36,270 bases of DNA from Acidimicrobiia bacterium. GTDB lineage: Bacteria; Actinomycetota; Acidimicrobiia; Spongiisociales; CAZKJJ01. Made by a program: the position numbers and the translations under genes. Under the pieces are notes generated by a model. It had not been told where the DNA came from, made no database searches, and saw only the letters and a list, made by a program, of their open reading frames with translations. Position 1 is the first letter of the stretch; each line of letters begins with the position of its first letter. The stretch spans positions 1-36,270 of the forward strand of contig JBHICV010000008.1 in NCBI GenBank assembly GCA_046759765.1. The letters are read 5' to 3'. This document shows positions 1 to 19,741 of the stretch, one piece after another.

Positions 1-935
1 GCGGTGATGAAGATGGCCAGGGCGCCATAGGTGACCGTTTTGGAGATGACTAGATCGATGTCGTATAGCCGGTACTTAGTTATGGCAACGGCGAAAGACA
101 AGATCAACAGCGTCTCGGCCGCGGCCAGCAGTAGCAGGCCTGACAACTCGCTGAGCCCGAGAGCCCCGGTTTCCTGGTCGATTACGAGCAGCACCAAGGT
201 GGCGGCCAGGAAGGCGCCAGCCCAGGCGATCCATCGAATCTGATGTCGAGTCATTCCGGAACTGCGCCGATAGCGAACGACGACCCCAACCACCGATGCC
301 ACAACCGTGAGCAATATCAAACCAAACAGCGCGACTTCCGCCGGATCCTCAACCGGGGCGCTGACCGGCGTGGTGCTGGAGGGTCGGTACTCCCAGACCA
401 CTATGGGGATGGCCAGCGCCAATAGCGCCACGCTCAACCACCCCACCCACCGCCAGCGTGGAGAAGGTGGCCGACCGTCGGGGAACAGCAACAGCCCTAG
501 CGTCAACACCAGGGCAAAGGCCGGCATCCAGGCCCAGATAATCGGATTGAGAGCGACTGCTGCAGCCACTGGAAGGTCGGACGGGCTCAAGGCGAGCATT
601 TCCTCATAAGGGAGTTCGAGGATGGACGCCGGTGCAGTGAGGCTGAAGGCAGCGGCGCCCGCGCTGGAGAGCGCGGCGAAGAAGGCGGCCCAGGCAAGCG
701 CCCACACGACCCCGTTACGGGGCTGAGGGCTGATCGTCAGCCAGGCCAACGATCCTGTGCCGATGGCCCAAAGACTGATGTGGCCGACGGCCAGGTCGGT
801 GACCAGATCCCACTGGCCCAGTACGGCGATTATTCCCAAGCTGATGAGGGCCACGGCTGCCGCGGTCCCGGCGAGGAGCCTTCCCCACCTCGTCACGGTT
901 CGATCGTCGATCCTCGCCATAGTCCCCTTAGTCAT
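1..935 (-). CDS. Multi-TM sensor protein, probable histidine kinase paralogue (partial, runs off the left window edge)
   Basis: Absent from the ORF track because there is no stop in the window. Manual translation from ATG at 935 (ATGA overlap with the upstream stop) gives MTKGTMARIDDRTVTRWGRLLAG...FPDGRPPSPRWRWVGW...RYRRSSGMTRHQIRWIAW...AITKYRLYDIDLVISKTVTYGALAIFIT, collinear with the N-terminal half of 932..3043. An alternative ATG lies at 920. Confidence 0.85.
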   Translation of the reverse strand, partial: MTKGTMARIDDRTVTRWGRLLAGTAAAVALISLGIIAVLGQWDLVTDLAVGHISLWAIGTGSLAWLTISPQPRNGVVWALAWAAFFAALSSAGAAAFSLTAPASILELPYEEMLALSPSDLPVAAAVALNPIIWAWMPAFALVLTLGLLLFPDGRPPSPRWRWVGWLSVALLALAIPIVVWEYRPSSTTPVSAPVEDPAEVALFGLILLTVVASVVGVVVRYRRSSGMTRHQIRWIAWAGAFLAATLVLLVIDQETGALGLSELSGLLLLAAAETLLILSFAVAITKYRLYDIDLVISKTVTYGALAIFIT

Positions 936-3043
936 GAGAGTTCCAAGGCTCCGGCCGGCAGACGACCAATGATCACGGCCCCACTGCCCGGCGTTGACTC
1001 CACGCTCAACTGTCCACCGAGGGCTTCCACCCGATCGGCGACTGCAGCGAGACCCGGACCCGTGCTGCCCGATTCCGCGCCATGGACCGAGAAGGTGACC
1101 ATCTCGCCGTCGTCACCCAGTGTGACCCGCGCCGCACTGGCGCCCTCTGTGGCACGGCCGATTGCCTCCAGCACGGCGAAGTAGATGGTGGCTTCGATCT
1201 CGGGTGGGTAGCGACCGAAGCCGTCGGTCTCGACCGTGATCGGTATCGAAGTGTCCCTTCCGGCAGCAACCAAGGCGGCGCGCACCCCTTCAGCCTCGAG
1301 CAGGGGTGGGTAGATACCCCGGGCTGCCTCCCGCATCCCATTCACGGCGCGCTGTGCGTCGTCGGCTAGATCGGCTACAGCCGCGGCAACTTGGTCGACG
1401 CCCTCTCGTTCTGCCAGCGTCTTGGCGAGTCCCAGTTTGACCTTGAGGGCGACGACCTGCTGCTGGGCGCCGTCGTGCAGGTCGCGCTCCAGCCTTCTCC
1501 GCTCTAGATCTTGAGCGGAGACCAGCCGACGCCGCGAGAAACGGAGCTCAGCGGCTCGGTCGGCTAGCTCGGCATTGAGTCGAATATTGCGGAGCAGCAA
1601 CCCCGCGCTGGCGGCTACGTCCTCGAGCAATCGTTGATCGGATGGCGTTACCGGATCTGACGCCCCCTTTTGTATGGACAGCGCTCCGAGGAGCTCGCCC
1701 CCGTGTTCAATCGGCTCAGCTGCATCGCCGGGAAGCTGTGGCAGCTCGCTGCCAACCAGGGGGACCGACGCGGTTACTTCGGGCGAGGTGGTTGCTTCTG
1801 GCCGAAGCTGATTTCCCACACGTAGCCACACCACCGCCTCGGTGGCTCCAGTGCCTGACATGAGTAGCTGCGCCAAACGGTCGAGCGCCTGCTCGTCAGA
1901 CTCGGCCTCGGACATTCGCGCCGTCAGTTGGGAGAGCACCTCGTAGGGGGTTGCTCGCTCTCCGTATACCAGTCGGTTGGCCCAACGTTGCAGCCGTGAC
2001 CGCACCGGCTCGAACAGAATCGCCACCAACGCCGTAGCGCCTATCGCCAGCATCAGGTTGGGCTCATCGCCTCCACCGGCGAGGGCTCCCACGCCGACCA
2101 CGATCGCCACGTACACGGCGGTGATGAAGATGGCCAGGATGCCGTAGGTGACCGTCTTAGAGATGACGACGTCGATGTCGTATAGCCGGTATTTGGTGAT
2201 CGCGACCGCAAAGGAAAGGATCAACAGAGCTTCTCCGAAAAGGGCGAGATACCCCGACACACTGGCTCCGGAGCCGGTGGGCCCTTCTAGGAGCTGGCCC
2301 CCGACCAATGATGCGGCGAGGAAGGTTCCACCCCAGGCGATCCATCGGATCTGGCGCCGGGTCACTCCCGAACTACGCCGGTAGCGGACGACGAGCGCGG
2401 TCACCGATAGCGCGACACCGACCAGTGCCAGGGAGATCGCCGCACCGGCTATTAGGCCGACCGTGTCCGCGGACTCCACATCGCTGTCGATGGGGACGGT
2501 GCTGGAAGGGCGAGCCACCCAAGCCAGGGAAACGACGGCAAGGGCTATCGTTGCCATACTGAACCAGCCCACCCACCGCCACTGCCTAGAGGGCGGCCCA
2601 CCATCAGGGAACCACAGGAGTCCCAAGGTCATTACGAGGACGAACGCTGGGACCCAGCCCCAGGCTACCGGCTGTAAGGCGATGGCCGCTGCTCGGGGAA
2701 GGTCCGACGGGCTCAACGCCGATATCTCCTCCGTTGGTAGCTCCAGGATGGGCGCCGGAGCAATGAGCGCGAAGGCAGCAAAACCCGCTGTGAAGAGCGC
2801 CCCGAAAAAGGCGCCCCAGGCGAGCGCCCACACCGCCCGGTTGCGCGCCTGGGTGGTCATCGTCACCCAGACCAACGAACCGAAGCCCACGGCGAGCAGG
2901 CCGTTGTGGACGACGAAGCCCTCGACGAAAATACCCCACTGGCCCAGCACGGCAAGGATTCCCATGCTGAGAAGCGCGATGGCCACCGCGGCCCCGGCCA
3001 GGACTCTCCCCCACCCGATCCGAGTTCGATCCTCGACGCTCAC
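932..3043 (-). CDS. Membrane sensor histidine kinase-like protein (multi-TM + GAF + HisKA_3 + degenerate HATPase)
   Basis: Many hydrophobic helices, a GAF-like segment (EPIEHGGELLGALSI), H-box ERRRLERDLHDGAQQ and C-terminal GLAAVADRVEALGG. Start moved to GTG 3043, which overlaps the upstream TGA (GTGA). Confidence 0.88.
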   Translation of the reverse strand: MSVEDRTRIGWGRVLAGAAVAIALLSMGILAVLGQWGIFVEGFVVHNGLLAVGFGSLVWVTMTTQARNRAVWALAWGAFFGALFTAGFAAFALIAPAPILELPTEEISALSPSDLPRAAAIALQPVAWGWVPAFVLVMTLGLLWFPDGGPPSRQWRWVGWFSMATIALAVVSLAWVARPSSTVPIDSDVESADTVGLIAGAAISLALVGVALSVTALVVRYRRSSGVTRRQIRWIAWGGTFLAASLVGGQLLEGPTGSGASVSGYLALFGEALLILSFAVAITKYRLYDIDVVISKTVTYGILAIFITAVYVAIVVGVGALAGGGDEPNLMLAIGATALVAILFEPVRSRLQRWANRLVYGERATPYEVLSQLTARMSEAESDEQALDRLAQLLMSGTGATEAVVWLRVGNQLRPEATTSPEVTASVPLVGSELPQLPGDAAEPIEHGGELLGALSIQKGASDPVTPSDQRLLEDVAASAGLLLRNIRLNAELADRAAELRFSRRRLVSAQDLERRRLERDLHDGAQQQVVALKVKLGLAKTLAEREGVDQVAAAVADLADDAQRAVNGMREAARGIYPPLLEAEGVRAALVAAGRDTSIPITVETDGFGRYPPEIEATIYFAVLEAIGRATEGASAARVTLGDDGEMVTFSVHGAESGSTGPGLAAVADRVEALGGQLSVESTPGSGAVIIGRLPAGALELS

Positions 3044-4344
3044 GTTGCTATCCGCGGGATTCGGAAAGCCTTCACCGGCATTTGGCGACCCTTGACCAGG
3101 GCCGGCTCCAACTGGTCGCTGTCCGGATGAGTGGCGATCGCGTCCCAGGTCGCCTCGCTCAGCACAATCTCGCCCGGATCGGCCCATTGTTGGAGGCGCT
3201 GCGACAGGTTGACCGTGTCGCCCACCACCGTGTATTCGAGCCGCTCTTCCGAGCCCAGCAGCGCGGCGGCAACCGTGCCCGTTGACAATCCAATTCCAAG
3301 ATGGAACGGCTCCAGGCCCCGAGCCAGCCAGGCGGCGTTGACTTCGGCTTGAGCAGCGTGCATCGCCTGGGCGGCGGCCAGTGCCCGATCGGCATGGTTG
3401 TCCAACGGGACCGGCGCCCCGAAGACACCCATTACGGCGTCCCCGATGAACATCATCACCGTGCCGTGCTCGTCGAGTACCGCTTTGTTCATGGCGGCTC
3501 GGTGCTCGTTCAGCTGTCCGGCCAGTGTGCTCGGGTTGGTGCGTTCCGCGATGCTCGAGTAGCCGCGGATGTCGGACATCAGCACGGTTACCTCCAGCTC
3601 CTCAGTCTCGCCGATCCGCTTTCCCTCCTCGCGCAGCTTTTGGGCGACACCGCCCGGGAGCAGTCGTCCCAAAGTCTCGCCTTGCTCCTCGCGCTCCATG
3701 ATCGCCTGGTGCAGTCGCTTGAGCCGTTCCAGACTCCCTTCCTCACCGGCGGAGAGGCCCTCGGCCAGCTTGACAAAAAGCTCCTCGACGGCGGCGTCGA
3801 TGTCAGTAGGAGTCGTCTTCCGTGCCACGGCAATCGCTTTGATCGGGGTTCCTTGAGCCACCTGCTGCAACAGGTCCTCCTCGTCGGCAGATAGCACTCC
3901 TTCGGTACGCACCGGAGAAGCGAGCGCCTCCACGATCTTCGGGTCGAGCAGCGACCCGCCCGACGCCACCTCGCGTATCGCACGGGCGAGCTGGTTGCCC
4001 TCACCCACCCGGTCTTTCAGCATGTAGGCATACCCGGCCGCGCCCTCCGAAAGAAGGGAAACCGCGTACTCGGGATCGTCGTACTGCGAGAGGATCACGA
4101 CCCCCGTGCCGGGATGACGCTTGCGGACCTCCTTCGCGGCGTCGATTCCCTCACGGGAGAAGTTGGGCGGCATCCGTATATCCGTCACCACAACCTGGGG
4201 CTTGGCATCCTCGGCGCCTTCGACTAACTCGTCGTAATCGGCGGCGACTCCAATCACGTCGAGGTCATCCTCGAGGTCGAGCAGGGCCTTAACGCCTTCG
4301 CGCACGATCAGGTTGTCGTCCGCTAAGAACACTGAGATCGTCAC
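3040..4344 (-). CDS. Response regulator receiver + LuxR-like HTH remnant + class III adenylate/guanylate cyclase fusion
   Basis: NarL-type receiver (LADD, VTDIRMPP, ILSQY, YMLK), HTH-like LSADEEDLLQQVAQG...IAVARK, cyclase motifs SDIRGYS, FIGDAVM, GIGLSTG, YTVVGDTVNLSQRL. GAGGTG RBS upstream of the GTG. Confidence 0.9.
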   Translation of the reverse strand: MTISVFLADDNLIVREGVKALLDLEDDLDVIGVAADYDELVEGAEDAKPQVVVTDIRMPPNFSREGIDAAKEVRKRHPGTGVVILSQYDDPEYAVSLLSEGAAGYAYMLKDRVGEGNQLARAIREVASGGSLLDPKIVEALASPVRTEGVLSADEEDLLQQVAQGTPIKAIAVARKTTPTDIDAAVEELFVKLAEGLSAGEEGSLERLKRLHQAIMEREEQGETLGRLLPGGVAQKLREEGKRIGETEELEVTVLMSDIRGYSSIAERTNPSTLAGQLNEHRAAMNKAVLDEHGTVMMFIGDAVMGVFGAPVPLDNHADRALAAAQAMHAAQAEVNAAWLARGLEPFHLGIGLSTGTVAAALLGSEERLEYTVVGDTVNLSQRLQQWADPGEIVLSEATWDAIATHPDSDQLEPALVKGRQMPVKAFRIPRIAT

Positions 4345-4499
4345 GGCTCACCTCTTGTCTGTCACTACGAATATCTCATAGCCTGTCAGTCGTGACCATG
4401 GTGCAGGCCCCCGAATCGAGGTGGGGTTAACCGAACCCCTCAGTTCGGATCCGCCAGCGCGGAGTAGGTTCCGCACGGACGAAGCAGGGGAGGGCATCA

Positions 4500-4880
4500 G
4501 TGTCGGAGCCGATCGTTTTCATTAGCCACCAGAGGATCAAGGAGGGCAAGCTCGAGGGATTCAAGGAGCAGGCTCGCGAAGTTGCGCGCACGCTGGAGGA
4601 GACCAAGCCGGGCACGGTCGTGTTCTATGCGTACCTCAACGAGGCCGGAACCGAGGCGACCGTCGTCCATGTGTTTCCGGACCGCGAAGCCATGGATGCG
4701 CACATGGAGGGGGTCATGGAGAGGGCACAGGCCGCCTACGAATACATCGAGCCGCAGAGGATGGAGATCTACGGCTTGCCGAGCGATCAGACAATGGAGG
4801 TCTTCAAGCAGTCGGCCGAAATGGGGGTCGGCGTAACCTTTGAGCCTGAACCCCTGGCTGGATACCTCCGCCTCGCCTGA
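4500..4880 (+). CDS. ABM/Dabb-like dimeric alpha-beta barrel protein (putative monooxygenase)
   Basis: 126 aa, pattern RIKEGKLEGFK...PGTVVFYAY...VHVFPDREAMDAH typical of ABM-like proteins; GGGAGGG RBS upstream. Confidence 0.65.
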   Translation: MSEPIVFISHQRIKEGKLEGFKEQAREVARTLEETKPGTVVFYAYLNEAGTEATVVHVFPDREAMDAHMEGVMERAQAAYEYIEPQRMEIYGLPSDQTMEVFKQSAEMGVGVTFEPEPLAGYLRLA

Positions 4881-5091
4881 CTCGCATCCCTGGCACTGAA
4901 GCCACGGCATTCATCTGCTCTGCGCCGGGCAGGGCAGTATTCATGAAGGCGCGGCTAGAGGCCGCCCATACGACTGTGCCGGCGGTCCTCCAACGGTGAG
5001 CAGAGCACACGGCGACTTTCCCTCCTCGGCCCGTCACGTGAAAGAGGGAGTGCGTAGGCTCAGCGAAGGCCGTAACTATAGGAGGAGTGTG

Positions 5092-5454
5092 ATGGGCAAG
5101 CTGCTGGTGGTCGGAACCTACGCCACGGATGATCCGACCCGAGCATCCATGCCCTTTGTGGCGGTCTCTGGCGCATTGGACCGGGGTCACGAACCAGGAA
5201 TCGTTCTGATGGGTGAGGCGGTCTATCTGATGAATGATCAGATCGTCGACGACATCCAAGGTGTCGGTTTTCCACCACTCCGCGACCTGTGGGACAAGGC
5301 CGTCGACAACCGCGTGCCGATATTCGTCTGAGGGCCTTGCAGCCAGGCCCGTGCGGTCGGCGAAGAGGCTCTCGAAGGCAAGAACGCACAGTTCACGGGA
5401 CCAGACGATTTCAGTGACCTCATGATGGAGTACGACCGGGTCCTGAGCTACTGA
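5092..5454 (+). CDS. DsrE/DsrF-like protein, probable selenoprotein (in-frame TGA at 5329-5331 in a U-G-P-C motif)
   Basis: AGGAGGAG RBS at 5080-5087, ATG 5092. DsrE-like N-terminus (TDDPTRASMPF...LMGEAVYLM...GVGFPPL). Reading through TGA gives VPIFV-U-GPCSQARAVGEEALEGKNAQFTGPDDFSDLMMEYDRVLSY-stop, a full-length 120 aa DsrE-like protein. Confidence 0.85.
5342..5361 (+). promoter_or_regulatory. Candidate bacterial SECIS hairpin
   Basis: GCC-A-GGCC/CGUGC/GGUC-GGC: stem with a bulged A and a GU-containing apical loop, starting at the 11th nt after the UGA. An alternative 6-bp hairpin GGGCCT/AGGCCC spans 5332-5350. Folded by eye. Confidence 0.55.
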
Positions 5455-5504
5455 GAGCTTGGCCTTCGGAGTCGGGGAGCGCCAGGGCATATCGAGCGCC
5501 CCTA

Positions 5505-5765
5505 TCAGCCGGAGTCATTCATCTCGCGCCGGATCTCTTCGTTGGTGATGGGCGCCTCTTCGCGGTAGACGTTCCAGCCGTGGAACGCGAAGCCGACGCC
5601 CCAACCCAGCAGCACCCATCCGGGCCAGAAACTGCCGGCGCCTGATAATGCCCAGATCCCCACCAGGAAGGCATTTATCACGACGTAGGTGACCAAGTGG
5701 GACCTGAAGCTTCGCTTTGCTCTGACTCGTTTGATGGCCGCCTTCCGACGCTCGTCGTTGTTCAT
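5505..5765 (-). CDS. 2TM domain-containing small membrane protein
   Basis: FRSHLVTYVVINAFLVGIW...FWPGWVLLGWGVGFAFH is the characteristic 2TM pattern; GGAGG RBS. Confidence 0.85.
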   Translation of the reverse strand: MNNDERRKAAIKRVRAKRSFRSHLVTYVVINAFLVGIWALSGAGSFWPGWVLLGWGVGFAFHGWNVYREEAPITNEEIRREMNDSG

Positions 5766-6058
5766 GGCCTCCTCCGTGGCTCCGTCTGGCAGACGGAGAC
5801 TGTCCGAGGACGCGAGACCAGAACTCGCCCGCGTCGGGCGAGCTCCGCCTGCTCGCTTGAATCTTGTCGCTGCAACTCAGCTGTGGCCATGGCCGTGGGC
5901 CGTGTTCGGCGCCAGGGCATCGCTGCTCTTTGGTCGTAGTCCTGCTTCTCCGGGTAGCACGCGATCCTGGGAGAATGGCGGCCGGTCGCGGCTAGAAACG
6001 AGTACGAGAGGTACATGGAGAGCCAACGCGCACGTAGCTCAAAGGCCGGGTTTGACCA

Positions 6059-6571
6059 ATGACGGGACGCCACGCAGGGCGGCGTCAGGAGGACTTCTGG
6101 AAGGACCTCTTGATTTTCGGCCTCAAGGTCCTGTTCTGGGGAGCCGTCGTCATAGGCGTTGTATGGGTCTTCCGACAGGTGCCCGGCTTGGGAGCCGGGG
6201 AAGAGAGCGACCCCGGCGAGATAGCCGCCGAAGTCCCGGCGCCCGTCACAACCGCGACTACTTCGGCAACGACCACGACCTCCGAGCCGGTCCTCGATCC
6301 ATCTGAGGTAACGGTCCTGGTACTCAATTCCACCGACAGGTCAGGCCTGGCGGGACGTGTGACGGATACCATCAGCGGCTTGGGATACGAAACTCTCGAG
6401 GCCGCCAACTACGCCAACCCACTCGAAGATTCGCTGCTTTGGTACGCACCTGGGCATGAGGATGAGGCGGAGGAGCTCGCCCGAGTCTTGCCCGACATGA
6501 TCATCGGGCCCAACCCGGAGGCACCTCAGGCCGATCTGGTCATCGTTCTGGGCTCCTCTTTTCAAGAGTGA
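6059..6571 (+). CDS. LytR C-terminal domain-containing membrane-anchored protein
   Basis: One TM helix, Thr-rich linker, then VTVLVLNSTDRSGLAG...ANY...ADLVIVLG (LytR_C pattern). Confidence 0.85.
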   Translation: MTGRHAGRRQEDFWKDLLIFGLKVLFWGAVVIGVVWVFRQVPGLGAGEESDPGEIAAEVPAPVTTATTSATTTTSEPVLDPSEVTVLVLNSTDRSGLAGRVTDTISGLGYETLEAANYANPLEDSLLWYAPGHEDEAEELARVLPDMIIGPNPEAPQADLVIVLGSSFQE

Positions 6572-7482
6572 CGGAACGTTCCCATTGGCCCCCCTGGCTT
6601 TGGCTGATGGACGGCGTGGTAGTTGTCGTTGTCGCCATTGCCTCACTCGGCGGCTTGTTGATGCCAGCTCTTTTGCTCGATCTCGCTTCGTTCTGGCCCT
6701 TCTATCTGGTGGGGATCGTCGCCGGTGTAGTTCTGGCGCTCTTCCCTCGCGCGAAGCGAGCCGGGGCCAAGGGGAGGGCCAGGCACAGCGAAGGTGGGCG
6801 GCGGCGGAGCCGCCGCAGGGTCCGGACGTGGCTCCGGCTGATAGCTCCCCTGTTCGTGCTCATGTGGCTAGTTGTGGCGCTGACGCTCCATTTCGTAGGC
6901 TGGATCGAGCTGCCTTCGGCCGCCGGAGATCTCCGCGGACCAGACGTTGGTTCGGTAATGGATGCCGAAGTCGCCGTTGCGATGTCTGGCCTCCTCACGG
7001 TCAGCGCTGGCACTGAGCCGCTCTACGAGGTTGCGCTCGCCAGAGCGGGCGGCGACACGGGCGTACCGGAGTCACTCGAATCGATCACAGTTTCAGACGC
7101 CGTCATCTCGATGCGCGAGACACATGACTCGTTCTGGTTTGAGACGTCGGGATGGAACCTGCGGCTGGCCGTTGGGCCTTCCTGGGCGCTGGATCTTCGC
7201 TCATCGGAGCTAGATGCCGATCTGCGAGGCCTGAGCCTGCGCTCGGCGCGGCTGGACGGCTCCGGAATGGCGGCCCTTCCTACCTCTGATGGACCCATGG
7301 AGGTCGGAGTGACCGGGGGCTTTGTCCTCAGCGTGCCCAAGGGCCAACCGGTGGAGATCGTGGGACCTGCGACGGTTCCCGATACGTGGCTTCAGACAGA
7401 AGGGGGCTGGCGGTCACCTGCCGACGGTGACGGGCTTCTGATCGCCGTCGAGGAGGGTCCCGTTGTGGTGATAGAGCGGTGA
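6568..7482 (+). CDS. Hypothetical membrane protein (N-terminal TM helices, beta-rich C-terminal domain)
   Basis: GTGA overlap with the previous gene; 304 aa with about three hydrophobic segments; no family confidently recognised. Confidence 0.65.
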   Translation: MTERSHWPPWLWLMDGVVVVVVAIASLGGLLMPALLLDLASFWPFYLVGIVAGVVLALFPRAKRAGAKGRARHSEGGRRRSRRRVRTWLRLIAPLFVLMWLVVALTLHFVGWIELPSAAGDLRGPDVGSVMDAEVAVAMSGLLTVSAGTEPLYEVALARAGGDTGVPESLESITVSDAVISMRETHDSFWFETSGWNLRLAVGPSWALDLRSSELDADLRGLSLRSARLDGSGMAALPTSDGPMEVGVTGGFVLSVPKGQPVEIVGPATVPDTWLQTEGGWRSPADGDGLLIAVEEGPVVVIER

Positions 7483-7512
7483 GTACACTCCCCGGCGAAT
7501 GAGCGGGCGACG

Positions 7513-8727
7513 ATGAGCGAACCCTCCCCGCTCTACGAGCGGTTCCGCAGGCTGGGTATCGCATCCTGGAGTGTCGTCGGAGTTCTGCTTGTGGCGGCGG
7601 TTGCGATATGGATCGCGATTCAGCTGCGGATCATCCTCCTGCCGCTGATCCTGGCCATCGGCATCATCTATCTGATCAACCCGTTCGTTGATCTCCTGTC
7701 CAGGACCAGGGTGCCCCGAATCCTGGGCACGGTTCTCGTGTACATCGTCTTCATCGGCCTTTTGGTCCTGGCCGGCGTGGCCATCTATCCAATGGTCCGT
7801 GATCAGGTAGTCACATTCATCGCCCAGGTCCCGGACATCGCCACGGACCTGACCGCCGAGATCGTCCGTATCGCCACGAATCTGGGTATCACCGTGGATC
7901 TGCCCACGATCGAGTCGATCCAGGAATGGCTGGCCGACCCGGCCAATCGCGAGCAGATAATCGAAGCACTCGGGCAGGTTTCCGAGGTGGGACTGGCGGT
8001 CTTCGAGGTAATCGGGATATTCCTGCTCGCTCCGATCCTCGCCTTGTACCTGCTGATCGATCTGCCTGCGATCAAGGAGCGGGCGACTGGCCTTTTGCCC
8101 CCCGCCTCTCGGGAAGAGGCAATTTTCCTGGGTCGGGAGCTGGGCCGGGCTCTCGGCGGGTTCGTCAGGGGCCAGCTGGTGGTTGCGCTCTTCGTTGGCG
8201 TGGCCTCGAGCATCGGGCTTCGGATCATCGACCACCCGTTCTGGCTGGTGATCGGACTGATAGCCGGAGTCTTGAACCTGGTGCCGTTCATCGGTCCGAT
8301 CTCCGGTGGGATCCTCGCCGCGGCCACCGCGATCGCAGTGCAGGACTTCTCGACCGCTATCTGGTCGGTGGTGGTGATGGTGATCGTTCAGCAGATCGAC
8401 AACCACCTGATCAGCCCGATCGTTTTACGAGTGGCAGTCAAGCTGTCTCCCGTGACGATCATCCTCGCCCTGATCGCCGGGGGAGCGCTCTTTGGACTGT
8501 TCGGAGTCTTGATCGCAGTGCCAACCGTCGCCGCCGTCAAAGTTCTTTTGGGCCATCTGTGGCGGACCCGGATCCTGGGCGAGTCCTGGGAGGAGGCTTC
8601 CGAGGCCATGATCGTCACGTATGAGCCTCCCGCCCGGCTTGTTCGGCGCGGCCGCAGCTCGCCCGAGCAGCTGACGCTCGATAGTTCAGAGGACGAAGAG
8701 GCGCCAGACGAGGCTGCCGAGGCTTAG
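7513..8727 (+). CDS. AI-2E family transporter (PerM/TqsA-like)
   Basis: Polytopic membrane protein with FVRGQLVVAL, LNLVPFIGP, QQIDNHLISP...LSPVTIILALIAGG..FGLFGVLIAVP motifs. Confidence 0.92.
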   Translation: MSEPSPLYERFRRLGIASWSVVGVLLVAAVAIWIAIQLRIILLPLILAIGIIYLINPFVDLLSRTRVPRILGTVLVYIVFIGLLVLAGVAIYPMVRDQVVTFIAQVPDIATDLTAEIVRIATNLGITVDLPTIESIQEWLADPANREQIIEALGQVSEVGLAVFEVIGIFLLAPILALYLLIDLPAIKERATGLLPPASREEAIFLGRELGRALGGFVRGQLVVALFVGVASSIGLRIIDHPFWLVIGLIAGVLNLVPFIGPISGGILAAATAIAVQDFSTAIWSVVVMVIVQQIDNHLISPIVLRVAVKLSPVTIILALIAGGALFGLFGVLIAVPTVAAVKVLLGHLWRTRILGESWEEASEAMIVTYEPPARLVRRGRSSPEQLTLDSSEDEEAPDEAAEA

Positions 8728-8753
8728 AGGCTCCTCGTTAGTCTCGGTCAGGC

Positions 8754-9506
8754 GTGACCACTCGCTTCTCACTTTGGTCGGGACCCCGAAACGTGTCGAC
8801 GGCCGTCATGTACGCCTTTGCGCAAAGGCCGGACACCAAGGTGGTTGATGAGCCCTTCTACGCCCACTACTTGACAGTGACTGGACTCCATCATCCAGGT
8901 CGGGATCTGGTGATCGCGGACCAGGAGAGCGACATCGACAAGGTGATCACAGATGTCGTGCTTGCCCCGTGTGACCGTTCGCTCCTCTTCATGAAGCAGA
9001 TGGCTCACCATCTCGTCGCAGTTGATCACTCCTTCCTGGCCCAAACCCTCAACGGATTGTTGATCAGAGATCCCGCCGAGGTGCTACGGACTCTGCCGAA
9101 CCAGATTCCGAAGCCGACACTTAGGGACACCGCACTGCCGCAGCAGGTTGAGCTGTACGACGAGCTGGTCGGGCTCGGACAGAAACCGTCGGTGGTAGAC
9201 GCGCGCGAGCTCCTACTTCACCCCAGATGGGTGCTCGAGGCACTGTGTGACTCGATCGGCGTTGTATTCGACGAAGCGATGCTGAGCTGGTCAGTAGGTG
9301 ATCGACCCGAGGATGGAGTCTGGGCGCCGTTCTGGTATGAGAACGTGCACCAGTCGACTGGCTTCAAGCCATATCGGGCCAAGACGAGCCCGTTTCCTGC
9401 CGAGCTCGAGCTGTTATTGGAGGAGTGCCGGCCCTACTACGACTATCTGTATGAGCGAGCGCTGCGACCCGATGGGAGGCGAAGTGAGGGAATACGAACC
9501 CAGTGA
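8754..9506 (+). CDS. Sulfotransferase-like P-loop protein (resembles the N-terminal domain of plant BCAT-like proteins)
   Basis: LWSGPRNVSTAVMYAFAQRPDTKVVDEPFY, FMKQMAHH, LIRDP, DGVWAPFWYENVHQSTGF. Confidence 0.8.
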   Translation: MTTRFSLWSGPRNVSTAVMYAFAQRPDTKVVDEPFYAHYLTVTGLHHPGRDLVIADQESDIDKVITDVVLAPCDRSLLFMKQMAHHLVAVDHSFLAQTLNGLLIRDPAEVLRTLPNQIPKPTLRDTALPQQVELYDELVGLGQKPSVVDARELLLHPRWVLEALCDSIGVVFDEAMLSWSVGDRPEDGVWAPFWYENVHQSTGFKPYRAKTSPFPAELELLLEECRPYYDYLYERALRPDGRRSEGIRTQ

Positions 9507-10401
9507 ACTAGCAGACCCGCGGAATGCGGACATCCAGGTTTATGTCGGCGGTGCGCTCTATCCAAGGTCGGAGGCCAAGGTGTCGGTTTTCGACAGCTCC
9601 GTTCAAGGCGGAGACGCCGTGTGGGAGGGTCTCCGGATCTACGACGGTCGCATCTTCGCCCTAGATGCCCATCTAGATCGGCTCGAAGCGTCGGCAAAGG
9701 CGCTGGCCTTCGCGGACATACCGTCCCGGGCCGAGATCAAGGATGCCATTTTTCAGACCCTCCGAGCCAACGGTATGCGGGAAGGCGTTCACGTCCGCCT
9801 TACGCTGACCCGCGGTCCGAAGTTGACCTCCGGCATGAGCCCGGCCTTCAACCAGGCCGGATCGTGCCTCATCGTGCTGGCCGAGTGGAAACAGCCCGTC
9901 TACGAGCGCTCAGGCATCCGTCTGATCACCGCGGCCGTCCGTCGCAACTCTCCCTCCACGCTCGACTCGAAGATTCACCACAACAATCTGATCAACAACA
10001 TCCTCGCCAAGCTCGAGGCGAACGCAGCCGGGGTCGATGATGCACTGATGCTCGACCTGCAGGGCTTCGTGGCAGAGACCAACGCAACCAACGTTTTCTT
10101 GGTGAAGCGCGGGCAGCTGCTGACTCCTTCGCCGGACGCCTGTCTTCCCGGGATCACAAGGGAGGTGGTCATTGAATTGGCCCGAGCTAACGGCATCGAG
10201 GTGGAGGAGAGGAACGTGTCGCTCTCGGAGGTGTATAGCGCCGATGAGGCCTTTACTACCGGGACGATCGGCGAGTTGACGCCCGTGTTGGAGCTAGACG
10301 GGCGGACGATCGGAACGGGTGTGATGGGACCGGTTACCGAGCAACTGCAGAAGCTGTACCTCGAGCGAACGGCGGCTGAAGGAGAAGTGCTTCCCTTCTG
10401 A
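9484..10401 (+). CDS. PLP-dependent aminotransferase class IV (BCAT/DAAT-like)
   Basis: VSVFDSSVQGGDAVWEGLR, HLDRL, KIHHNNLINN, ETNATNVF, CLPGITR, ADEAFTTGT. Start placed at GTG 9484 after GGGAGG; alternative ATG at 9472. Confidence 0.92.
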   Translation: MREYEPSELADPRNADIQVYVGGALYPRSEAKVSVFDSSVQGGDAVWEGLRIYDGRIFALDAHLDRLEASAKALAFADIPSRAEIKDAIFQTLRANGMREGVHVRLTLTRGPKLTSGMSPAFNQAGSCLIVLAEWKQPVYERSGIRLITAAVRRNSPSTLDSKIHHNNLINNILAKLEANAAGVDDALMLDLQGFVAETNATNVFLVKRGQLLTPSPDACLPGITREVVIELARANGIEVEERNVSLSEVYSADEAFTTGTIGELTPVLELDGRTIGTGVMGPVTEQLQKLYLERTAAEGEVLPF

Positions 10402-10601: not shown

Positions 10602-10749
10602 CGCAGTGCCCCTTCCTCCCCCTGCATGACCCCGGCGCCATTCTGCGCGGCTCGATCCAATGTCGCACTGTCCCTTTTCCCCTGGCTCGATCTGACTAGC
10701 CCCCTCGTGTGTGCGAAGCGCCGATCGTCCCACGCAATATCCTCCTGCC

Positions 10750-12021
10750 ATGGCCAGGATCGACCTCACCGATCGGGACCGAGCGTTCCTCGCCGGTGAC
10801 ATGGGCGAGGGGGCGAAGCTCGCGATGACGATCATCATCCGAGTAGCCGAGGCAATGGGTGCGCGCAAGCTCCTCGACATCACCCGCGCTCACATCGACA
10901 GCTGCGTGTTCTATGGGGTCGCCGGGCTCGACTTCGCGGAGCGGATGCGGGACGCTGGGGCACACACCTCTGTTCCGACGACGCTCAACATCTCCTCGCT
11001 CGATCTTCTTCATCCCGACCTCTATCGGGGAGATGAGGAGACGAAGAAGCTCGCGACGCGCTTGATGAACGCTTACGTGGACATGGGCGGCCAGCCCACT
11101 TGGACGTGCGCCCCGTATCAACTAACGGACCGCCCTGGGTTCGGAGAGCAGATCGCCTGGGCGGAGTCGAACGCCATCGTTTTCGCCAACTCGGTGATCG
11201 GAGCCAGAACCAACCCCTATGGCGACTTCATCGACATCGCGGCCGCGGTGACAGGAAGGGTGCCTGCCGCGGGCCTCCACCTATCTGAGAACCGACGCGG
11301 GGAGTTGCTTTTTCGGTTACGCGGCCTGCCGGAGGCGCTGCTCAGGGAGGAAGTCTTCTTTCCCGTACTGGGTCACCTAATAGGCCGACGGGCCGGCCGC
11401 CGGATTCCCGTCATTTCGGAGTTACCGGCGTCAACCAGCGAGGACAGCCTCAAGGCGTTAGGGGCCGCGGCGGCATCCTCTGGGTCGGTGGCGCTGTTTC
11501 ACGCCGTCGGCCTCACCCCCGAGGCTCCTGACACGGGGACAGCCTTCGCGGAACTTGAGCCACTCGGCACGATCGATGTCGATTCCGCCATGATCGCCGA
11601 AGCTCGAGATGAGCTGACGACGGCCACGACAGGACCGCTTCGAGCAGTCACTCTCGGCACGCCGCACATGTCTATCGAAGGGTTCGCTCGACTAGCGGCT
11701 CTGCTGTCGGGCGAAGTCATTCATCCAGAGATCGAGTTCTACATCAATACCGGTAGGAGCGTTCTCGACGAGGTTCGGAATCGGGGCTGGCTTGCGGAGA
11801 TCGAACGAGCCGGCGCGCAGGTTGTCACCGACACTTGCACCTACGTCACGCCGATCCTGCGTCGACTCGATGGCGTCGTGATGACCGATTCGGGCAAGTG
11901 GGCCTATTACGCCCCTGGCAACCTGGGCGTGGATGTGGCCTTCGGAAGCATGAAAGAGTGCGTCCGGTCCGGAGTGGCAGGAAGGATCGTGAGAGACGAG
12001 GAGCTCTGGAGTGGAATCTGA
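10750..12021 (+). CDS. Aconitase X catalytic (large) subunit, probable cis-3-hydroxy-L-proline dehydratase
   Basis: AHIDSC, VPTTLN, WTCAPY, IAWAESNAIVFANSVIGARTN, GSVALFHAVGLTPEA, GTPH, DTC, MTDSGKWAYYAP; genomic context supports the substrate call. Confidence 0.88.
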   Translation: MARIDLTDRDRAFLAGDMGEGAKLAMTIIIRVAEAMGARKLLDITRAHIDSCVFYGVAGLDFAERMRDAGAHTSVPTTLNISSLDLLHPDLYRGDEETKKLATRLMNAYVDMGGQPTWTCAPYQLTDRPGFGEQIAWAESNAIVFANSVIGARTNPYGDFIDIAAAVTGRVPAAGLHLSENRRGELLFRLRGLPEALLREEVFFPVLGHLIGRRAGRRIPVISELPASTSEDSLKALGAAAASSGSVALFHAVGLTPEAPDTGTAFAELEPLGTIDVDSAMIAEARDELTTATTGPLRAVTLGTPHMSIEGFARLAALLSGEVIHPEIEFYINTGRSVLDEVRNRGWLAEIERAGAQVVTDTCTYVTPILRRLDGVVMTDSGKWAYYAPGNLGVDVAFGSMKECVRSGVAGRIVRDEELWSGI

Positions 12022-12430
12022 TGGGCGCACACTCGTGGCCGGAATGGCATCCGGCTCAGCTCTGGTCCTGGAAGAGCCGCTCTCTTTCTGGGGCGGTTTG
12101 GACGCCGAAACCGGCGAGGTGATTGACCGCCACCATCCTCAGAACGGGTCGGTTGTGACCGGCAAGGTGGTGGTGATGCCTCATGGTCGGGGTTCGTCCT
12201 CGGCGTCTGCGGTTCTGGCCGAGGCAATCCGGCTCGAAACCGCGCCGGCGGCGGTCGTAATGCGCAAAGTCGATCCGATCGTGATGCTCGGTTCGCTCGT
12301 GGCCGGCGAGCTCTACGGCCTCGTTTGCCCGGTGGTCGTTATTCCCTCTACCCAGTACGAGCAAATAGCAACGGGGGACTGGGTAGAAATCGTTGACGAC
12401 GGAACGGTGAGGGTCTCCACTGGTGGCTGA
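12011..12430 (+). CDS. Aconitase X swivel (small) subunit, DUF126 family
   Basis: PLSFWGGLDAETGEVIDRHHP, GRGSSS motifs; overlaps the end of the large subunit gene. Confidence 0.9.
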   Translation: MESDGRTLVAGMASGSALVLEEPLSFWGGLDAETGEVIDRHHPQNGSVVTGKVVVMPHGRGSSSASAVLAEAIRLETAPAAVVMRKVDPIVMLGSLVAGELYGLVCPVVVIPSTQYEQIATGDWVEIVDDGTVRVSTGG

Positions 12431-12449
12431 TAGCTGACAGCTGATAGCT
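12426..12449 (+). repeat. Heptamer tandem repeat (GCTGAYA)x3
   Basis: GCTGATA GCTGACA GCTGATA GCT spanning the DUF126 stop codon and the intergenic gap. Confidence 0.6.
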
Positions 12450-12456
12450 TCTCCCG

Positions 12457-13323
12457 ATGCGGTACCTGGCTGCCGATGACCTTCGCCAAGCGCTGCCCAT
12501 GGCCGACTGCATCGAAGCCATGAGAGCCGCTTTCTCCGACGATCGGGAGGTCCCGCCCAGGGTCATGCTCGGCACGTCGCTGTTCATGCCGGCGCGGGTC
12601 GGCGCCCACACGGGAATCAAGGTGGTGAGCACCGTTCCCGGTAACCCCGTCGGTGTCGTGGCTGTCTTCGGCGGCGATGGAACACCGCTGGGAATCGTCG
12701 ACGGACCCACCCTGACGGCCATCCGGACTGCAGCCGGAGCCGGATTGGCGACCGACCTGCTCGCTCGCACGGACAGCAAGTCCATGGCCATGCTGGGTGC
12801 GGGTGCCATGGCTTACGACCAGGTGGAGGCCATCCGGGCTGTTCGCCCTCTGGAGCGGATTCGAGTCTGGAGTCGCACCACCGAGCGGGCGGCCGCCCTG
12901 GCAGACAGGGTCGGCGGTGAGCCCGCGACGGACTCGGAGGAGGCGGTATCCGGCGCCGATGTGATCAGCTGCGCCACGCCGTCGAAACAGCCGCTTTTCT
13001 CGCCGGAGTCTGTCCAGACCGGAACCCACATCAATGCGATCGGCGCGTTCACACCCGACATGTGTGAGGTTCCTGCCGACACCGTCCGGTCGGCGTTTGT
13101 GGTCGTGGACGATCGTGCGGCGGCTGCGGCCGAGGCAGGGGACCTGATTCAGGCCGGCAAAAAACCCGACGCGACGATGGCCGACCTACTTGACGGTCGT
13201 CTCCGGAGAACGTCTCAGCCCATCACGTTGTTCAAGTCGGTGGGAATCGGTAGCCAGGATGTGGCGGCGGCGGTCCGGGCTTTGGAGAACGCAGCTGCGC
13301 GAGACATTGGTTTAGAGCTCTGA
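12457..13323 (+). CDS. Ornithine cyclodeaminase/mu-crystallin family protein, probable delta1-pyrroline-2-carboxylate reductase
   Basis: LTAIRTAAG, GAGAMA Rossmann motif, ADVISCAT, HINAIGA, TLFKSVGIGSQD; the specific function is inferred from context. Confidence 0.85.
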   Translation: MRYLAADDLRQALPMADCIEAMRAAFSDDREVPPRVMLGTSLFMPARVGAHTGIKVVSTVPGNPVGVVAVFGGDGTPLGIVDGPTLTAIRTAAGAGLATDLLARTDSKSMAMLGAGAMAYDQVEAIRAVRPLERIRVWSRTTERAAALADRVGGEPATDSEEAVSGADVISCATPSKQPLFSPESVQTGTHINAIGAFTPDMCEVPADTVRSAFVVVDDRAAAAAEAGDLIQAGKKPDATMADLLDGRLRRTSQPITLFKSVGIGSQDVAAAVRALENAAARDIGLEL

Positions 13324-13336
13324 GGGCTGACACATT

Positions 13337-13444
13337 TTCGTGTCAATCTGAACCGCACTTTCTGCGGCTCCGATTGACGGGAACGTGGGGGCATACTTCG
13401 TGTCAATGCCCGCGTCGGAAAGTGACACTGCGATTGACAAGAAC
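13337..13444. repeat. Two tandem copies (60-nt period) of a REP-like palindromic element
   Basis: TTCGTGTCAAT at 13337 and 13397; CGATTGAC at 13371 and 13431; inverted arms around a variable, partly self-complementary core. Confidence 0.8.
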
Positions 13445-13465
13445 GCGGCCAATACACTCCCCTCA

Positions 13466-14470
13466 ATGGATCCCCTCCGAATCACGACTACCGAGATGCA
13501 CACGGGCGGAGAGCCCGTTCGGATCGTTACCTCGGGCTATCCGGAAATCCGAGGATCCACGATCCTCGAGAAGCGGGCCTACGTACGCGAGTACCTCGAC
13601 CATCTGCGACGGTTTCTCATGTTCGAGCCTCGAGGTCACGCCGACATGTATGGCGTGCTCCCCGTGGAGCCGGATCATCCAGAGGCCGATCTGGCGGTTC
13701 TGTTCATGCACAACGAGGGGTATTCGACCATGTGCGGCCACGCCACCATCGCCCTGGGACGCTGGGCCGTTGACGAAGGCCTAGTCGAAGTCCGGAAGCC
13801 GGCCACGACCATCAAACTTCAAGTGCCGGCAGGGCTCGTCACGATCAGAGCGGAAGTAGACGACGGAACCATCGGCGATGTCTACTTCGAATCCGTTCCT
13901 GCCTTCGCGTTCGCGCTTGACCAACCCGTGGAGGTGCCTGGCCACGGCCAGGTAGCTGTAGACATTGGCTACGGAGGCGCGTTCTATGCGTTTGTCGCAG
14001 CCACTCGATTCGGGCTCAACGTACTGAAATCGCAGATGCACGATCTAGTGGAGGCCGCCTGGGCGGTAACCAAGGCCGTGCAAGCGAGTGTTCCCCTCCA
14101 CCACCCGGACACTCCTGACCTGGAGTTTCTCTACGGGACCATTCTCACCGACGGGTCCGATGATTATTCCGAGGAACCCACCGCCAATGTCTGCGTCTTC
14201 GCCCACCGCCAGGTCGACCGGAGTCCCACCGGTTCGGGCGTCACCGCGCGGATTGCCCTACAAAGGGCCCGAGAGCAAATCGAACTGGGACAGACCCGTA
14301 GCTTTCAAAGTGTCACCGGGGCGACTTTCACGGGCACGGGTGTCCGAGAAGGACGGGTAGGGGACATTCCCGCCGTCGTGGTAGAGGTCGGAGGGAGGTC
14401 CTACTACACGGGCGAGGCGGTGTTGGTCCTCGAACAAGACGACCCTCTTCCCGGCTTTCTGGTGACCTGA
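13466..14470 (+). CDS. Proline racemase family protein, probable trans-3-hydroxy-L-proline dehydratase
   Basis: MHTGGEP, EPRGHADMYG, STMCGH (Cys) and DRSPTGSG (Thr in place of the second Cys). The Cys/Thr pair is the known dehydratase signature. Start set at ATG 13466. Confidence 0.88.
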   Translation: MDPLRITTTEMHTGGEPVRIVTSGYPEIRGSTILEKRAYVREYLDHLRRFLMFEPRGHADMYGVLPVEPDHPEADLAVLFMHNEGYSTMCGHATIALGRWAVDEGLVEVRKPATTIKLQVPAGLVTIRAEVDDGTIGDVYFESVPAFAFALDQPVEVPGHGQVAVDIGYGGAFYAFVAATRFGLNVLKSQMHDLVEAAWAVTKAVQASVPLHHPDTPDLEFLYGTILTDGSDDYSEEPTANVCVFAHRQVDRSPTGSGVTARIALQRAREQIELGQTRSFQSVTGATFTGTGVREGRVGDIPAVVVEVGGRSYYTGEAVLVLEQDDPLPGFLVT

Positions 14471-14601
14471 AAAAGCTGGGAGGAGCGTCCTGCACATGGG
14501 CATGGGCGAGGTTTCCATGTCTATACTCGCCGGTTACCAAAGGGGGAACTCCGGTTCCTCCTGCCCAACTGTGAATTCATGCAATCAGTAGGAGGTATTT
14601 A

Positions 14602-15915
14602 GTGAGGCAAAGGAAGAAACCGTATCGCTGGCGCGCGATCGTGGGCCTCGGAGCTGCGTTGGCGCTCGTGGCGGCCGCCTGCGGCGGGGAGAAGACCCTG
14701 GACGAATTCAGCCCGGGTCCCCTCGGAGGCGTTCTCTACGGCGCGGACGAGCCGGTGGAGATTCGGACACTGCAGGCGATCAGCGGTGATGTTGCTTTCC
14801 TCGGAGTCGACCAGGTGCGAGGCACCGAGCTGGCCATCGAGGACTACACAGCCGCGTTTGGCGGCATCAAAGGCCACTCCATCAATCTGGGGACGCCCGA
14901 GGACGACCTCTGCTCTTCAGAAGGTGGGACTTCAGGTGCTAATGCGATCGCGGCCCAGGAAGGCGTTCTGGCGGTGATCGGGACCACTTGCTCAGGTGCC
15001 GGCGTGCCGGCTTCTCAGATCCTGTCACAGGCAGGCATTGTGCTCTTCTCGGGTTCGAACACGTCCCCGGCCCTGACCTCGGACTTGCAGGGCACGGCCG
15101 GAACGGCGTGGCAGCAGGGCTACTACCGGACCGCTCATAACGACCTCATCCAGGGTGCCGCCGCAGCCGCGTTTGCCTTGGAAGACCTTGGCTGGCAGAG
15201 CGCGGTCATGATCCATGACGGCGATCCCTATACCGAGGGCTTGGCGAACTCGTTCGCGGCGGCCTTCGAAGGCATGGGGGGCTCGGTCCCACTGATAACC
15301 GCCGTGAACAAGGGCGACACGGACATGGTGCCGATCCTGACGGACGCGGCGGCGCACAGCCCCGACGGGATCTACTTCCCGATCTTCCAGCCGGAGGGTG
15401 ACTTCATTCTCCAGCAGTACACAGGAGTGGCAGGGCTGGAGAACGTGCAAATGTTCGGGGCGGACGGTCTGATCACTCCCGACCACTTCAGTCGGATCGA
15501 GTCCGAAGGCGTGTACTACTCAGGACCTGATCTCGGCTTCGAAGGCAACACCGGGTTCACCGGAGAGACCTACACCAACTTGAGAAGCCGCTATACAGCG
15601 ACTTACGGCGAGGAACCCACCGCGGTGTTCCACGCCCACACGTATGACGCCACGATGATCGTCCTCGCGACGATCGACGCGGTGGCGGTCGAGGACGGCG
15701 ATCTGCTGTTCGTGGACAAGCAGGCTCTGCGTGACGCCCTGTACACCACCAGCAACTTCTCGGGGGTCACCGGGACGCTGGCTTGCGACGACTGGGGCGA
15801 CTGTGGAGGTAACGTCGTCTCGGTCGTGCTGAACGCGGATGCCAGCAATCCCGATACAGGTATTGCCAATGTGGTGTTCCGCTACGGTGCGGCTGGTGAG
15901 ATTCCGCTCGGCTAG
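14602..15915 (+). CDS. Branched-chain amino acid (HAAT) ABC transporter substrate-binding lipoprotein
   Basis: Lipobox LVAAAC, DDLCS...IGTTCSG, SNTSPALT, YYRTAHND, YDA, GVTG; AGGAGG RBS. Confidence 0.92.
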   Translation: MRQRKKPYRWRAIVGLGAALALVAAACGGEKTLDEFSPGPLGGVLYGADEPVEIRTLQAISGDVAFLGVDQVRGTELAIEDYTAAFGGIKGHSINLGTPEDDLCSSEGGTSGANAIAAQEGVLAVIGTTCSGAGVPASQILSQAGIVLFSGSNTSPALTSDLQGTAGTAWQQGYYRTAHNDLIQGAAAAAFALEDLGWQSAVMIHDGDPYTEGLANSFAAAFEGMGGSVPLITAVNKGDTDMVPILTDAAAHSPDGIYFPIFQPEGDFILQQYTGVAGLENVQMFGADGLITPDHFSRIESEGVYYSGPDLGFEGNTGFTGETYTNLRSRYTATYGEEPTAVFHAHTYDATMIVLATIDAVAVEDGDLLFVDKQALRDALYTTSNFSGVTGTLACDDWGDCGGNVVSVVLNADASNPDTGIANVVFRYGAAGEIPLG

Positions 15916-15938
15916 ACGACCCTAAGTGGTAGAAATGT

Positions 15939-15966
15939 GTCCGGCGCCGCCTCGGCGGCGCCGGAC
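15939..15966 (+). other. Strong intergenic stem-loop after the substrate-binding protein gene
   Basis: GTCCGGCGCCGC-CTCG-GCGGCGCCGGAC, a perfect 12-bp stem without a U-tract. Likely an mRNA stabiliser or partial terminator (inference). Confidence 0.7.
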
Positions 15967-15984
15967 CGCTACTACTAGCGAGAG

Positions 15985-18953: not shown

Positions 18954-19741
18954 TGGCGCTGCTCGAAACCCTTCAGCTCACCAAGCGTTTCGGGGGTTTG
19001 GAGGCCGTGTCCAAACTCGATTTCTGGATCGAAGAGGGTGAGATCGTGAGCGTGATCGGACCTAACGGTGCCGGCAAGACGACCTTCTTCAACGTAATCA
19101 CCGGGATGCAGGATCCCGACGGGGGCGAAATCATCTTCCAAGGCGAGGACATCGCCGGCTTGGACCCGAGCACGATCACTGCGATGGGAATCGCCCGGAC
19201 GTTTCAGAACGTCCGGCTGTTCCCGAACATGACCGTTCTGGAGAACATGATGGTGGCTCAGCACTGCCGCACCCGAGTGGGCGTATTCGGGGCTGTACTC
19301 CAAACCAAGGGCTTCAAAACCGAGGAAGAGGAGATCAGGGAGCGGGGCAAGGACGTGCTTTCTTTCTTCGGCAGTCGCCTGGTGGGCTATCGGTTCGATC
19401 AACCGGCATTCGTCCTGTCCTACGCCAACCGCCGCCGGTTGGAGATCGCCCGAGCCATGGCCACTCAGCCCAACCTCCTGCTGTTGGATGAGCCGACCGC
19501 CGGGATGAACCCGCGGGAGACGGCCGAGTTGACCGAGTTGATCGGAAAGCTCAGAGATGACAAAGGCTTCACGGTGGTGCTAATCGAGCACGACATGAAG
19601 GTCGTGCGAGATGTGTCAGACCGTGTGGTGGTGCTCGACCACGGAGCGCAGATCGCCGAGGGCAGTTACGACGAGGTCTCGAGCAACGAAGACGTCATCG
19701 AGGCCTACCTCGGTCGGCCCGCAGAGGGCGGCCCAGGATGA
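18953..19741 (+). CDS. livG: Branched-chain amino acid ABC transporter ATP-binding protein LivG
   Basis: GPNGAGKTT, GIARTFQN, LLLLDEPTAG, LIEHDM, VIEAYLG. Confidence 0.95.
   Translation: MALLETLQLTKRFGGLEAVSKLDFWIEEGEIVSVIGPNGAGKTTFFNVITGMQDPDGGEIIFQGEDIAGLDPSTITAMGIARTFQNVRLFPNMTVLENMMVAQHCRTRVGVFGAVLQTKGFKTEEEEIRERGKDVLSFFGSRLVGYRFDQPAFVLSYANRRRLEIARAMATQPNLLLLDEPTAGMNPRETAELTELIGKLRDDKGFTVVLIEHDMKVVRDVSDRVVVLDHGAQIAEGSYDEVSSNEDVIEAYLGRPAEGGPG

Follow-up and report, generated by a model that had tools for sequence, protein, structure and literature searches.

Positions 5092–5454 of an Acidimicrobiia DNA stretch of 36,270 nucleotides (called the window throughout, always the whole analyzed stretch) raise the question of whether an in-frame TGA ends a 79-residue protein or is read as selenocysteine (Sec, U) inside a longer one. 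An earlier note on this DNA had described a hidden selenoprotein gene here, and the frame is as described: the mechanical ORF list stops at the TGA of codon 80 (5329–5331), beyond which the same frame continues for 40 sense codons (GPCSQAR...YDRVLSY) up to a second TGA at 5452–5454. The read-through product has 120 residues and carries the motif U80-G-P-C83, the first position of which is supplied by the internal TGA. In all likelihood, 5092–5454 is one gene for a stand-alone DsrE/YchN-type protein of 120 residues in which UGA codon 80 is recoded as selenocysteine. The gene is whole, its UGA, its downstream frame, and an RNA hairpin behind the UGA are each under selection, and the pairing of Sec with Cys at position 80 holds among homologs. 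The coordinates of the features are collected in Table 1.

Table 1. Features of the DsrE-like gene and its RNA, in window coordinates
Feature	Positions	Strand	Details and basis
DsrE-like gene, complete, very probably encoding a selenoprotein	5092–5454	+	120 codons and stop TGA 5452–5454; translation, Pfam PF02635, AlphaFold2 model, PDB fold matches
Shine–Dalgarno-like AGGAGG	5080–5085	+	6 nt before ATG 5092; read in the sequence
In-frame UGA, codon 80, very probably a selenocysteine codon; supplies the U of U-G-P-C	5329–5331	+	TGA in 21/21 site-covering loci; aligns with Cys of homologs
Cys83 codon TGC, likely resolving partner in UxxC	5338–5340	+	Cys at +3 in all 22 aligned sequences
SECIS-like apical stem-loop, conserved in the family	5344–5360	+	6-bp stem, columns 16–21 with 27–32; loop CGUGC 5350–5354; G5351 and U5352 invariant
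Longer lower helix of the window RNA, not a family feature	5329–5374	+	5329–5338 pairing with 5365–5374 (10 bp); MFE fold

The upstream piece in the mechanical ORF list begins at GTG 4996. The ATG at 5092 is favored as the start codon because the homologs start with M-G/A-K-L-L. A scan of 4800–5600 for promoter and terminator consensus sequences found none.

Taken alone, the open frame and the hairpin do not go beyond chance. At least 40 sense codons also follow the stop in 7 of 29 Pfam-supported control genes from the same window, which has 62% G+C. The hairpin at 5342–5361 folds as (((.((((.....))))))) with the loop CGUGC at −8.0 kcal/mol, and 50 of 200 shuffled sequences fold equally well (z = −0.59). 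For the 62-nt stretch 5329–5390 the MFE is −28.1 kcal/mol (z = −2.52). It is the homology and the comparative conservation among relatives that lift the case above chance. TGA is also the ordinary stop of 19 of the 29 Pfam-supported window genes and the commonest stop among them, and a general reassignment of UGA can therefore be set aside.

The protein encoded across the TGA is a DsrE-like protein of 120 residues, as had been claimed. The Pfam DsrE/DsrF-like profile PF02635 matches residues 3–119 with profile positions 2–115 of 116 (57.7 bits versus a cut-off of 22.7), so that the domain is split by the TGA. The full-length AlphaFold2 model, built from a 54-row alignment with Cys substituted for Sec, reaches a mean pLDDT of 98.0 and a pTM of 0.90. 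It places U80 at the end of the strand 77–80 and C83 inside the helix 81–86, and the part encoded past the UGA forms the strands 99–102 and 116–119 and the helix 104–113, which are predicted to be integral to the fold. The predicted model takes on the α/β fold of DsrE and YchN, and the top 11 PDB matches found with Foldseek are all of the DsrE/YchN/TusD type (TM 0.58–0.82). They include a DsrE/DsrF-like protein from Sulfolobus solfataricus (3mc3, TM 0.82), TusD (2d1p_A, TM 0.76), YchN from E. coli (1jx7, TM 0.75), and DsrE (2hy5_A, TM 0.71). In a profile search of the PDB, position 80 is a Cys in 3mc3, in YchN (C-K-T-C), in 3pnx, and in TusD (residue 90 of 2d1p_A); DsrF has no Cys at the position aligned with U80. 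Residue 90 of 2d1p_A would be Cys78 of TusD, provided that the deposited chain has a 12-residue tag. Cys78 of TusD and Cys78 of DsrE are persulfide-accepting residues.

One scan of a collection of species-representative genomes yielded 23 related loci, all from MAGs and with 38 to 88% identity, of which 13 belong to Actinomycetota (Acidimicrobiia, Nitriliruptorales, or unclassified) and ten to Chloroflexota. The homologs do not end at codon 80: in each of the 21 loci that span this position, the corresponding codon is TGA, behind which come x-x-TGY (Cys) and about 40 further conserved codons. The terminal stop varies among the 19 complete genes (window and 18 loci; TGA in eight, TAA or TAG in 11), while codon 80 is TGA in every one of them. 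In the same set, from which L002, L012, L021, L022, and L023 were excluded as partial or shifted, pairwise identity at codon positions 1/2/3 is 0.64/0.65/0.42 over codons 92–112 versus 0.66/0.78/0.41 over codons 1–79. The pattern past the UGA is like that before it, and the downstream part therefore evolves as a coding sequence under purifying selection.

These counts bear on the simplest alternative, namely that a Cys codon (TGC or TGT) was mutated to TGA or misread as TGA and that the gene is dead. TGA is one base away from both Cys codons, Cys forms of the family exist, and damaged copies do occur, as the frameshifted L021 and the truncated L022 illustrate. A pseudogene or a sequencing error is nevertheless exceedingly improbable, given that the same codon is TGA in each of the 21 other loci covering the site, across two phyla and down to 38% identity, and that the codon-position pattern is the same on both sides of it. 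The conservation of the hairpin with covariation and the many database relatives that stop at exactly the same residue, both described below, also speak against it. The two loci without the site are L021 (2656–2992), in which the frame shifts after about residue 47, and L022 (10001–10126), which is cut after codon 42 and lies beside DDE-transposase ORFs. A further copy, L012 (10001–10354), has a short N-terminal deletion and lacks a stop at the usual end.

The RNA directly behind the UGA was compared in a gap-free alignment of 22 sequences that covers 60 nt from the TGA. Its invariant columns are C22, G23, T24, and T29, in addition to T10 and G11 in the Cys83 codon. RNAalifold places a consensus stem at columns 17–21/27–31 with the loop C-G-U-G-N. 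In the 6-bp stem, 90.2% of the cells are paired across the 22 sequences and four of the six pairs show compensatory changes; its covariation score is reached by none of 500 column shuffles, and every slid register of the stem is only 20 to 52% paired. The window itself has an A-G mismatch at the pair 17:31, and an alternative register with a bulged A5345 spans 5342–5361. This is the bulged hairpin with a GU-containing loop to which the earlier note had pointed. It folds as claimed, but it does so no better than shuffled sequences, and the bulged register, when tested across the family, is not conserved. What stands is the broader claim of a SECIS-like hairpin 3′ of the UGA, carried by the family-conserved stem at 5344–5360 with its compensatory changes and its frozen synonymous sites. 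The longer lower helix is 64.1% paired across the 22 sequences, which is not clearly above controls.

The constraint on the RNA is also visible in the codons that form the stem-loop. Arg87 is encoded by CGT in 19 of 19 genes, while the equally invariant Arg17 uses all four third bases (A in three, G in six, C in seven, and T in three). Ala86 is GCC in 18 of 19 genes; the exception, L009, has T in column 21 together with A in the partner column 27, so that the pair is kept. Among four-fold codons, the mean synonymous identity is 0.81 over codons 85–90; elsewhere it averages 0.36 and never exceeds 0.63. The two invariant loop bases, G5351 and U5352, lie at a distance of 23 and 24 nt, respectively, counted from the U of the UGA. 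When compared by named features, the element agrees with the description of a bacterial SECIS, in which a stem-loop follows the UGA directly and carries a G in its small apical loop. Rfam gave no matches at gathering thresholds over the whole window; bacterial SECIS elements are poorly covered by Rfam according to a preprint on Actinomarina (10.64898/2026.04.03.716425).

In protein databases, the gene is mostly present in shortened form. A word-indexed protein search gave 135 matches, and of the 120 matches listed (57–90% identity to the query) 107 are exactly 79 residues long, nearly all ending at the homolog of V79. The first 79 residues of the window product recur unchanged in a 79-residue database entry (P0273). 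The expectation that standard pipelines truncate the gene is hence borne out by its own entry and by these relatives, and the present analysis corrects the annotation of a gene that, along with most of its relatives, is listed publicly as a 79-residue fragment. The fragments go under the source names “predicted peroxiredoxin” and [quoted passage not shown]; no NCBIfam model covers the protein.

An exhaustive search against 1.84 billion cluster representatives gave 517 matches at E ≤ 0.001. Among the best 150 of the 517, which were examined, 61 stop exactly at residue 79, two stop earlier, and 87 read past this point. The residues at positions 80 and 83 of these 87 form CxxC in 41, SxxS in 13, GxxC in three, and WxxC in two, and the remaining ones show scattered residues or are poorly aligned fragments. 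Together with the Cys of the PDB relatives, the 41 CxxC forms show the Cys/Sec pairing at codon 80 for which the earlier note had suggested looking in an alignment of DsrE homologs.

The prevalence of the short form invites the reading that UGA 5329 simply terminates translation, that the product has 79 residues, and that the conservation downstream belongs to an RNA element or to a separate small gene. Public sources do carry the 79-residue form, the window's own included, and the hairpin could in principle be regulatory. The Pfam domain and the confidently predicted fold, however, require residues 81–120, the Cys homologs are continuous 120-residue proteins, the downstream part shows the third-position wobble typical of coding sequence, and it has no start-like codon until codon 111. 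Termination at codon 80 is accordingly regarded as highly improbable, and recoding of the UGA remains the preferred reading.

Three close full-length homologs of 120 residues (P0004, P0009, and P0014) have G-S-S-C in place of U-G-P-C. Residue 80 is thus not indispensable in every lineage, as Gly occupies it in these three proteins. The GxxC forms reflect either a loss of Sec by a TGA-to-GGA change or the use of genetic code 25 in gene calling. In a tree of 32 sequences, they are nested within the Acidimicrobiia Sec clade (support 98/97), and the window protein groups with the Acidimicrobiia locus L001 (support 99/98). In this tree, the forms with Sec, Cys, Gly, and Ser are intermixed and most deep forks are unsupported, for which reason neither an order of the Sec/Cys changes nor a transfer between the phyla can be claimed. 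Two database proteins, P0161 and P0228, have Trp at the Sec position (PIIVW-TAC and PIYIW-GGC) within K/I/N-rich sequences; the Trp residues probably stem from TGA codons that were translated with table 4, which would make these proteins further Sec forms of low-G+C lineages. P0111 (109 residues) is 75% identical over residues 1–67 and then continues with a different, Ser/Arg/Pro-rich sequence, which suggests a frameshift in the gene call rather than a genuine variant.

If codon 80 is translated, the amino acid inserted there could still be Cys, Trp, or Gly if the organism lacked Sec machinery and the codon were served by a suppressor tRNA, by local recoding, or through near-cognate suppression. 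The 36-kb window contains no tRNA-Sec detectable by ARAGORN and no SelA, SelB, or SelD domains in 38 ORFs searched with Pfam, an outcome that is uninformative either way. The flanks of the 23 loci (up to 10 kb on each side) likewise yielded no SelA, SelB, or SelD in 311 ORFs with Pfam and no tRNA-Sec; the ORFs for both Pfam searches came from a longest-first filter with a minimum of at least 90 residues. Across the window and the 23 loci, ARAGORN found only ordinary tRNAs, plus a tmRNA in L005. That no sel genes were found in the window would suit an insertion other than Sec, as would the Trp and Gly forms in the databases, although these were maybe called under other genetic codes. On the other side, the conserved stem-loop with G-U in its small apical loop behind the UGA fits the SECIS features given in PMC1088965, the UxxC/CxxC pairing is the classical signature of a selenoprotein, and UGA as the commonest stop of the window argues against its general reassignment. 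Read-through with an amino acid other than Sec is therefore considered very unlikely. The reading of UGA as Sec, which the earlier note had proposed, draws together the TGA conserved in 21 of 21 loci, the coding-like codons downstream, the covarying hairpin, the CxxC homologs, and the correspondence of U80 to the Cys position of TusD.

We infer that SelB and tRNA-Sec perform the recoding in this organism. The stem-loop at 5344–5360 starts 15 nt past the first base of the UGA, and its small loop would present the invariant G-U. It would recruit SelB together with Sec-tRNA(Sec) to the ribosome, where the UGA is then decoded as Sec, and the other UGAs of the window would stay ordinary stops. In the folded protein, Sec80 at the end of strand 4 would take the place of the catalytic, persulfide-carrying Cys of TusD and DsrE. 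Cys83 would be located one helical turn from Sec80, and where strand meets helix the two residues would make up a redox pair. This UxxC pair most likely alternates between the selenol/thiol and the selenenylsulfide state, and the protein may serve as a small redox carrier or as a carrier of sulfane sulfur (possibly of selenium).

For the function, the earlier note had offered a Se-dependent sulfur-relay or peroxiredoxin-like protein, which can only be inferred. The predicted fold lends no support to the term peroxiredoxin, which is a label from the source databases: Pfam gives only DsrE, the thioredoxin fold of AhpC/TSA peroxiredoxins is not found, and no PDB match titled as a peroxiredoxin appears at E ≤ 0.001. 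A role as a thiol/persulfide-type redox carrier has about an equal chance of being right or wrong. The closest structural relatives share the fold and differ in the active site. By sequence, the best matches are 3mc3 and YchN (1jx7; profile E = 8.9e-17 and 4.8e-09, respectively), which are in the same length class and are stand-alone DsrE folds. Both have Cys rather than Sec at the position of U80, and YchN has a second Cys whereas 3mc3 does not. We know of no function for 3mc3 or YchN, and they therefore give little functional guidance. TusD of TusBCD (2d1p) and DsrE of DsrEFH (2hy5) are sulfur-relay proteins that have their fold in common with the window protein; unlike the latter, they contain neither CxxC nor Sec. 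YedF has a DsrE-like domain with CGxC that has been linked to selenium utilization (PMC5322559), and UGPC of the window protein is the Sec counterpart of CGxC. YedF differs from the single-domain window protein by an extra N-terminal SirA/TusA-like domain, and it is not reported as a selenoprotein in PMC5322559. A bolder reading, which we hold to be rather doubtful, is that the Acidimicrobiia and Chloroflexota genes represent a large unannotated YchN-type clade in which Sec replaces the persulfide Cys of TusD/DsrE, and whose proteins would act as selenium-based carriers of sulfane sulfur (or selenium) and not as peroxidases. If this were true, the protein could be among the selenoproteins for which these mostly aerobic lineages retain the Sec machinery.

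The genomic context supports no particular function, since the neighborhoods differ from locus to locus. The DsrE-like gene of the window is flanked by a gene with an ABM domain and a gene with a 2TM domain. Partner genes of the DsrF/TusC or DsrH/TusB type are not adjacent in the window or in any of the 23 loci, the nearest case being one DrsE_2 ORF 9 kb off in L023, and a Pfam search of the flank ORFs found no conserved neighbor genes across loci. L023, from Chloroflexota, is the only locus with a sulfur-trafficking neighborhood around the Sec gene (55–9546 and 12808–13194), which comprises OsmC, DrsE_2, a pyridine-nucleotide disulfide oxidoreductase, a cysteine-desulfurase-like protein, a rhodanese, a metallo-beta-lactamase, and ArsR. 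Its DrsE_2 gene (L023:927–1346) was considered as a second interrupted gene and ruled out, as its frame of 140 residues is closed by an ordinary stop, TAA or TAG.

The window gene belongs to a selenoprotein family that has been known for two decades and occurs in phyla for which Sec decoding has been described before. The earlier statement that DsrE-like selenoproteins have been reported is correct: the Sargasso Sea study of 2005 by Zhang, Gladyshev, and co-workers (PMC1088965) lists a “DsrE-like protein, Pfam02635, UXXC, 2 sequences” as one of 15 new families and gives a predicted SECIS for it, and a 2026 review (PMC13188914) lists the DsrE-like family with UxxC and PF02635. A DsrE-like selenoprotein is also listed for Desulfovibrio vulgaris (PMC1794560, 2006). 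The published members combine PF02635, UxxC, Cys homologs, and a SECIS-like hairpin with a G in the small apical loop after the UGA, as is the case here. They comprise two sequences from marine metagenomes and one gene of a deltaproteobacterium, whereas the present ones come from MAGs of Actinomycetota (largely Acidimicrobiia) and Chloroflexota. The likeness to published members (AACY01486889, WP_014524487.1) is one of family and motif description, not of sequence alignment. The suggestion that such a gene would be notable in an actinobacterial-type genome was overstated. PMC1794560 counts 12 selenoprotein families in Actinobacteria and three in Chloroflexi, and a 2026 preprint reports selC, selA, selD, and a divergent selB for all 84 complete genomes of Actinomarina, which belongs to the class Acidimicrobiia (10.64898/2026.04.03.716425); DsrE is absent from the main text of that preprint. 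General knowledge of selenoproteins is left unchanged by the finding. The gene marks its host as a probable user of selenocysteine, and the compact, conserved bacterial SECIS (GGCC-CGUGN-GGUC) from high-G+C lineages is usable for training selenoprotein finders.

Further selenoprotein candidates were sought in the window and all loci with a loose regular expression (TGA, 12–20 nt, SECIS-like core) that required open frames on both sides. It gave 34 hits. The DsrE-like genes themselves account for 22, and the 12 that remain have no UxxC-type context and were rejected, including two in the window (in the 3040–4344 region and at 30043 on the minus strand).

The remainder of the window is rich in genes for cyclic-nucleotide signaling. 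Upstream of the DsrE-like gene, 932–4344 on the minus strand encodes a GAF/HisKA_3 histidine kinase and a fusion of a response regulator with an adenylate/guanylate cyclase. The region 31284–32747 on the minus strand codes for another cyclase, here as a fusion with an alpha/beta hydrolase, and 29059–29481 for a cNMP-binding protein. On the plus strand, 10711–20481 harbors genes for AcnX (PF04412), the AcnX swivel domain (PF01989), an ornithine-cyclodeaminase-like protein (PF02423), and a proline-racemase-like protein (PF05544), and behind these genes comes an ABC uptake system of the branched-chain type. The region looks like a catabolic cluster for hydroxyproline or a proline derivative.
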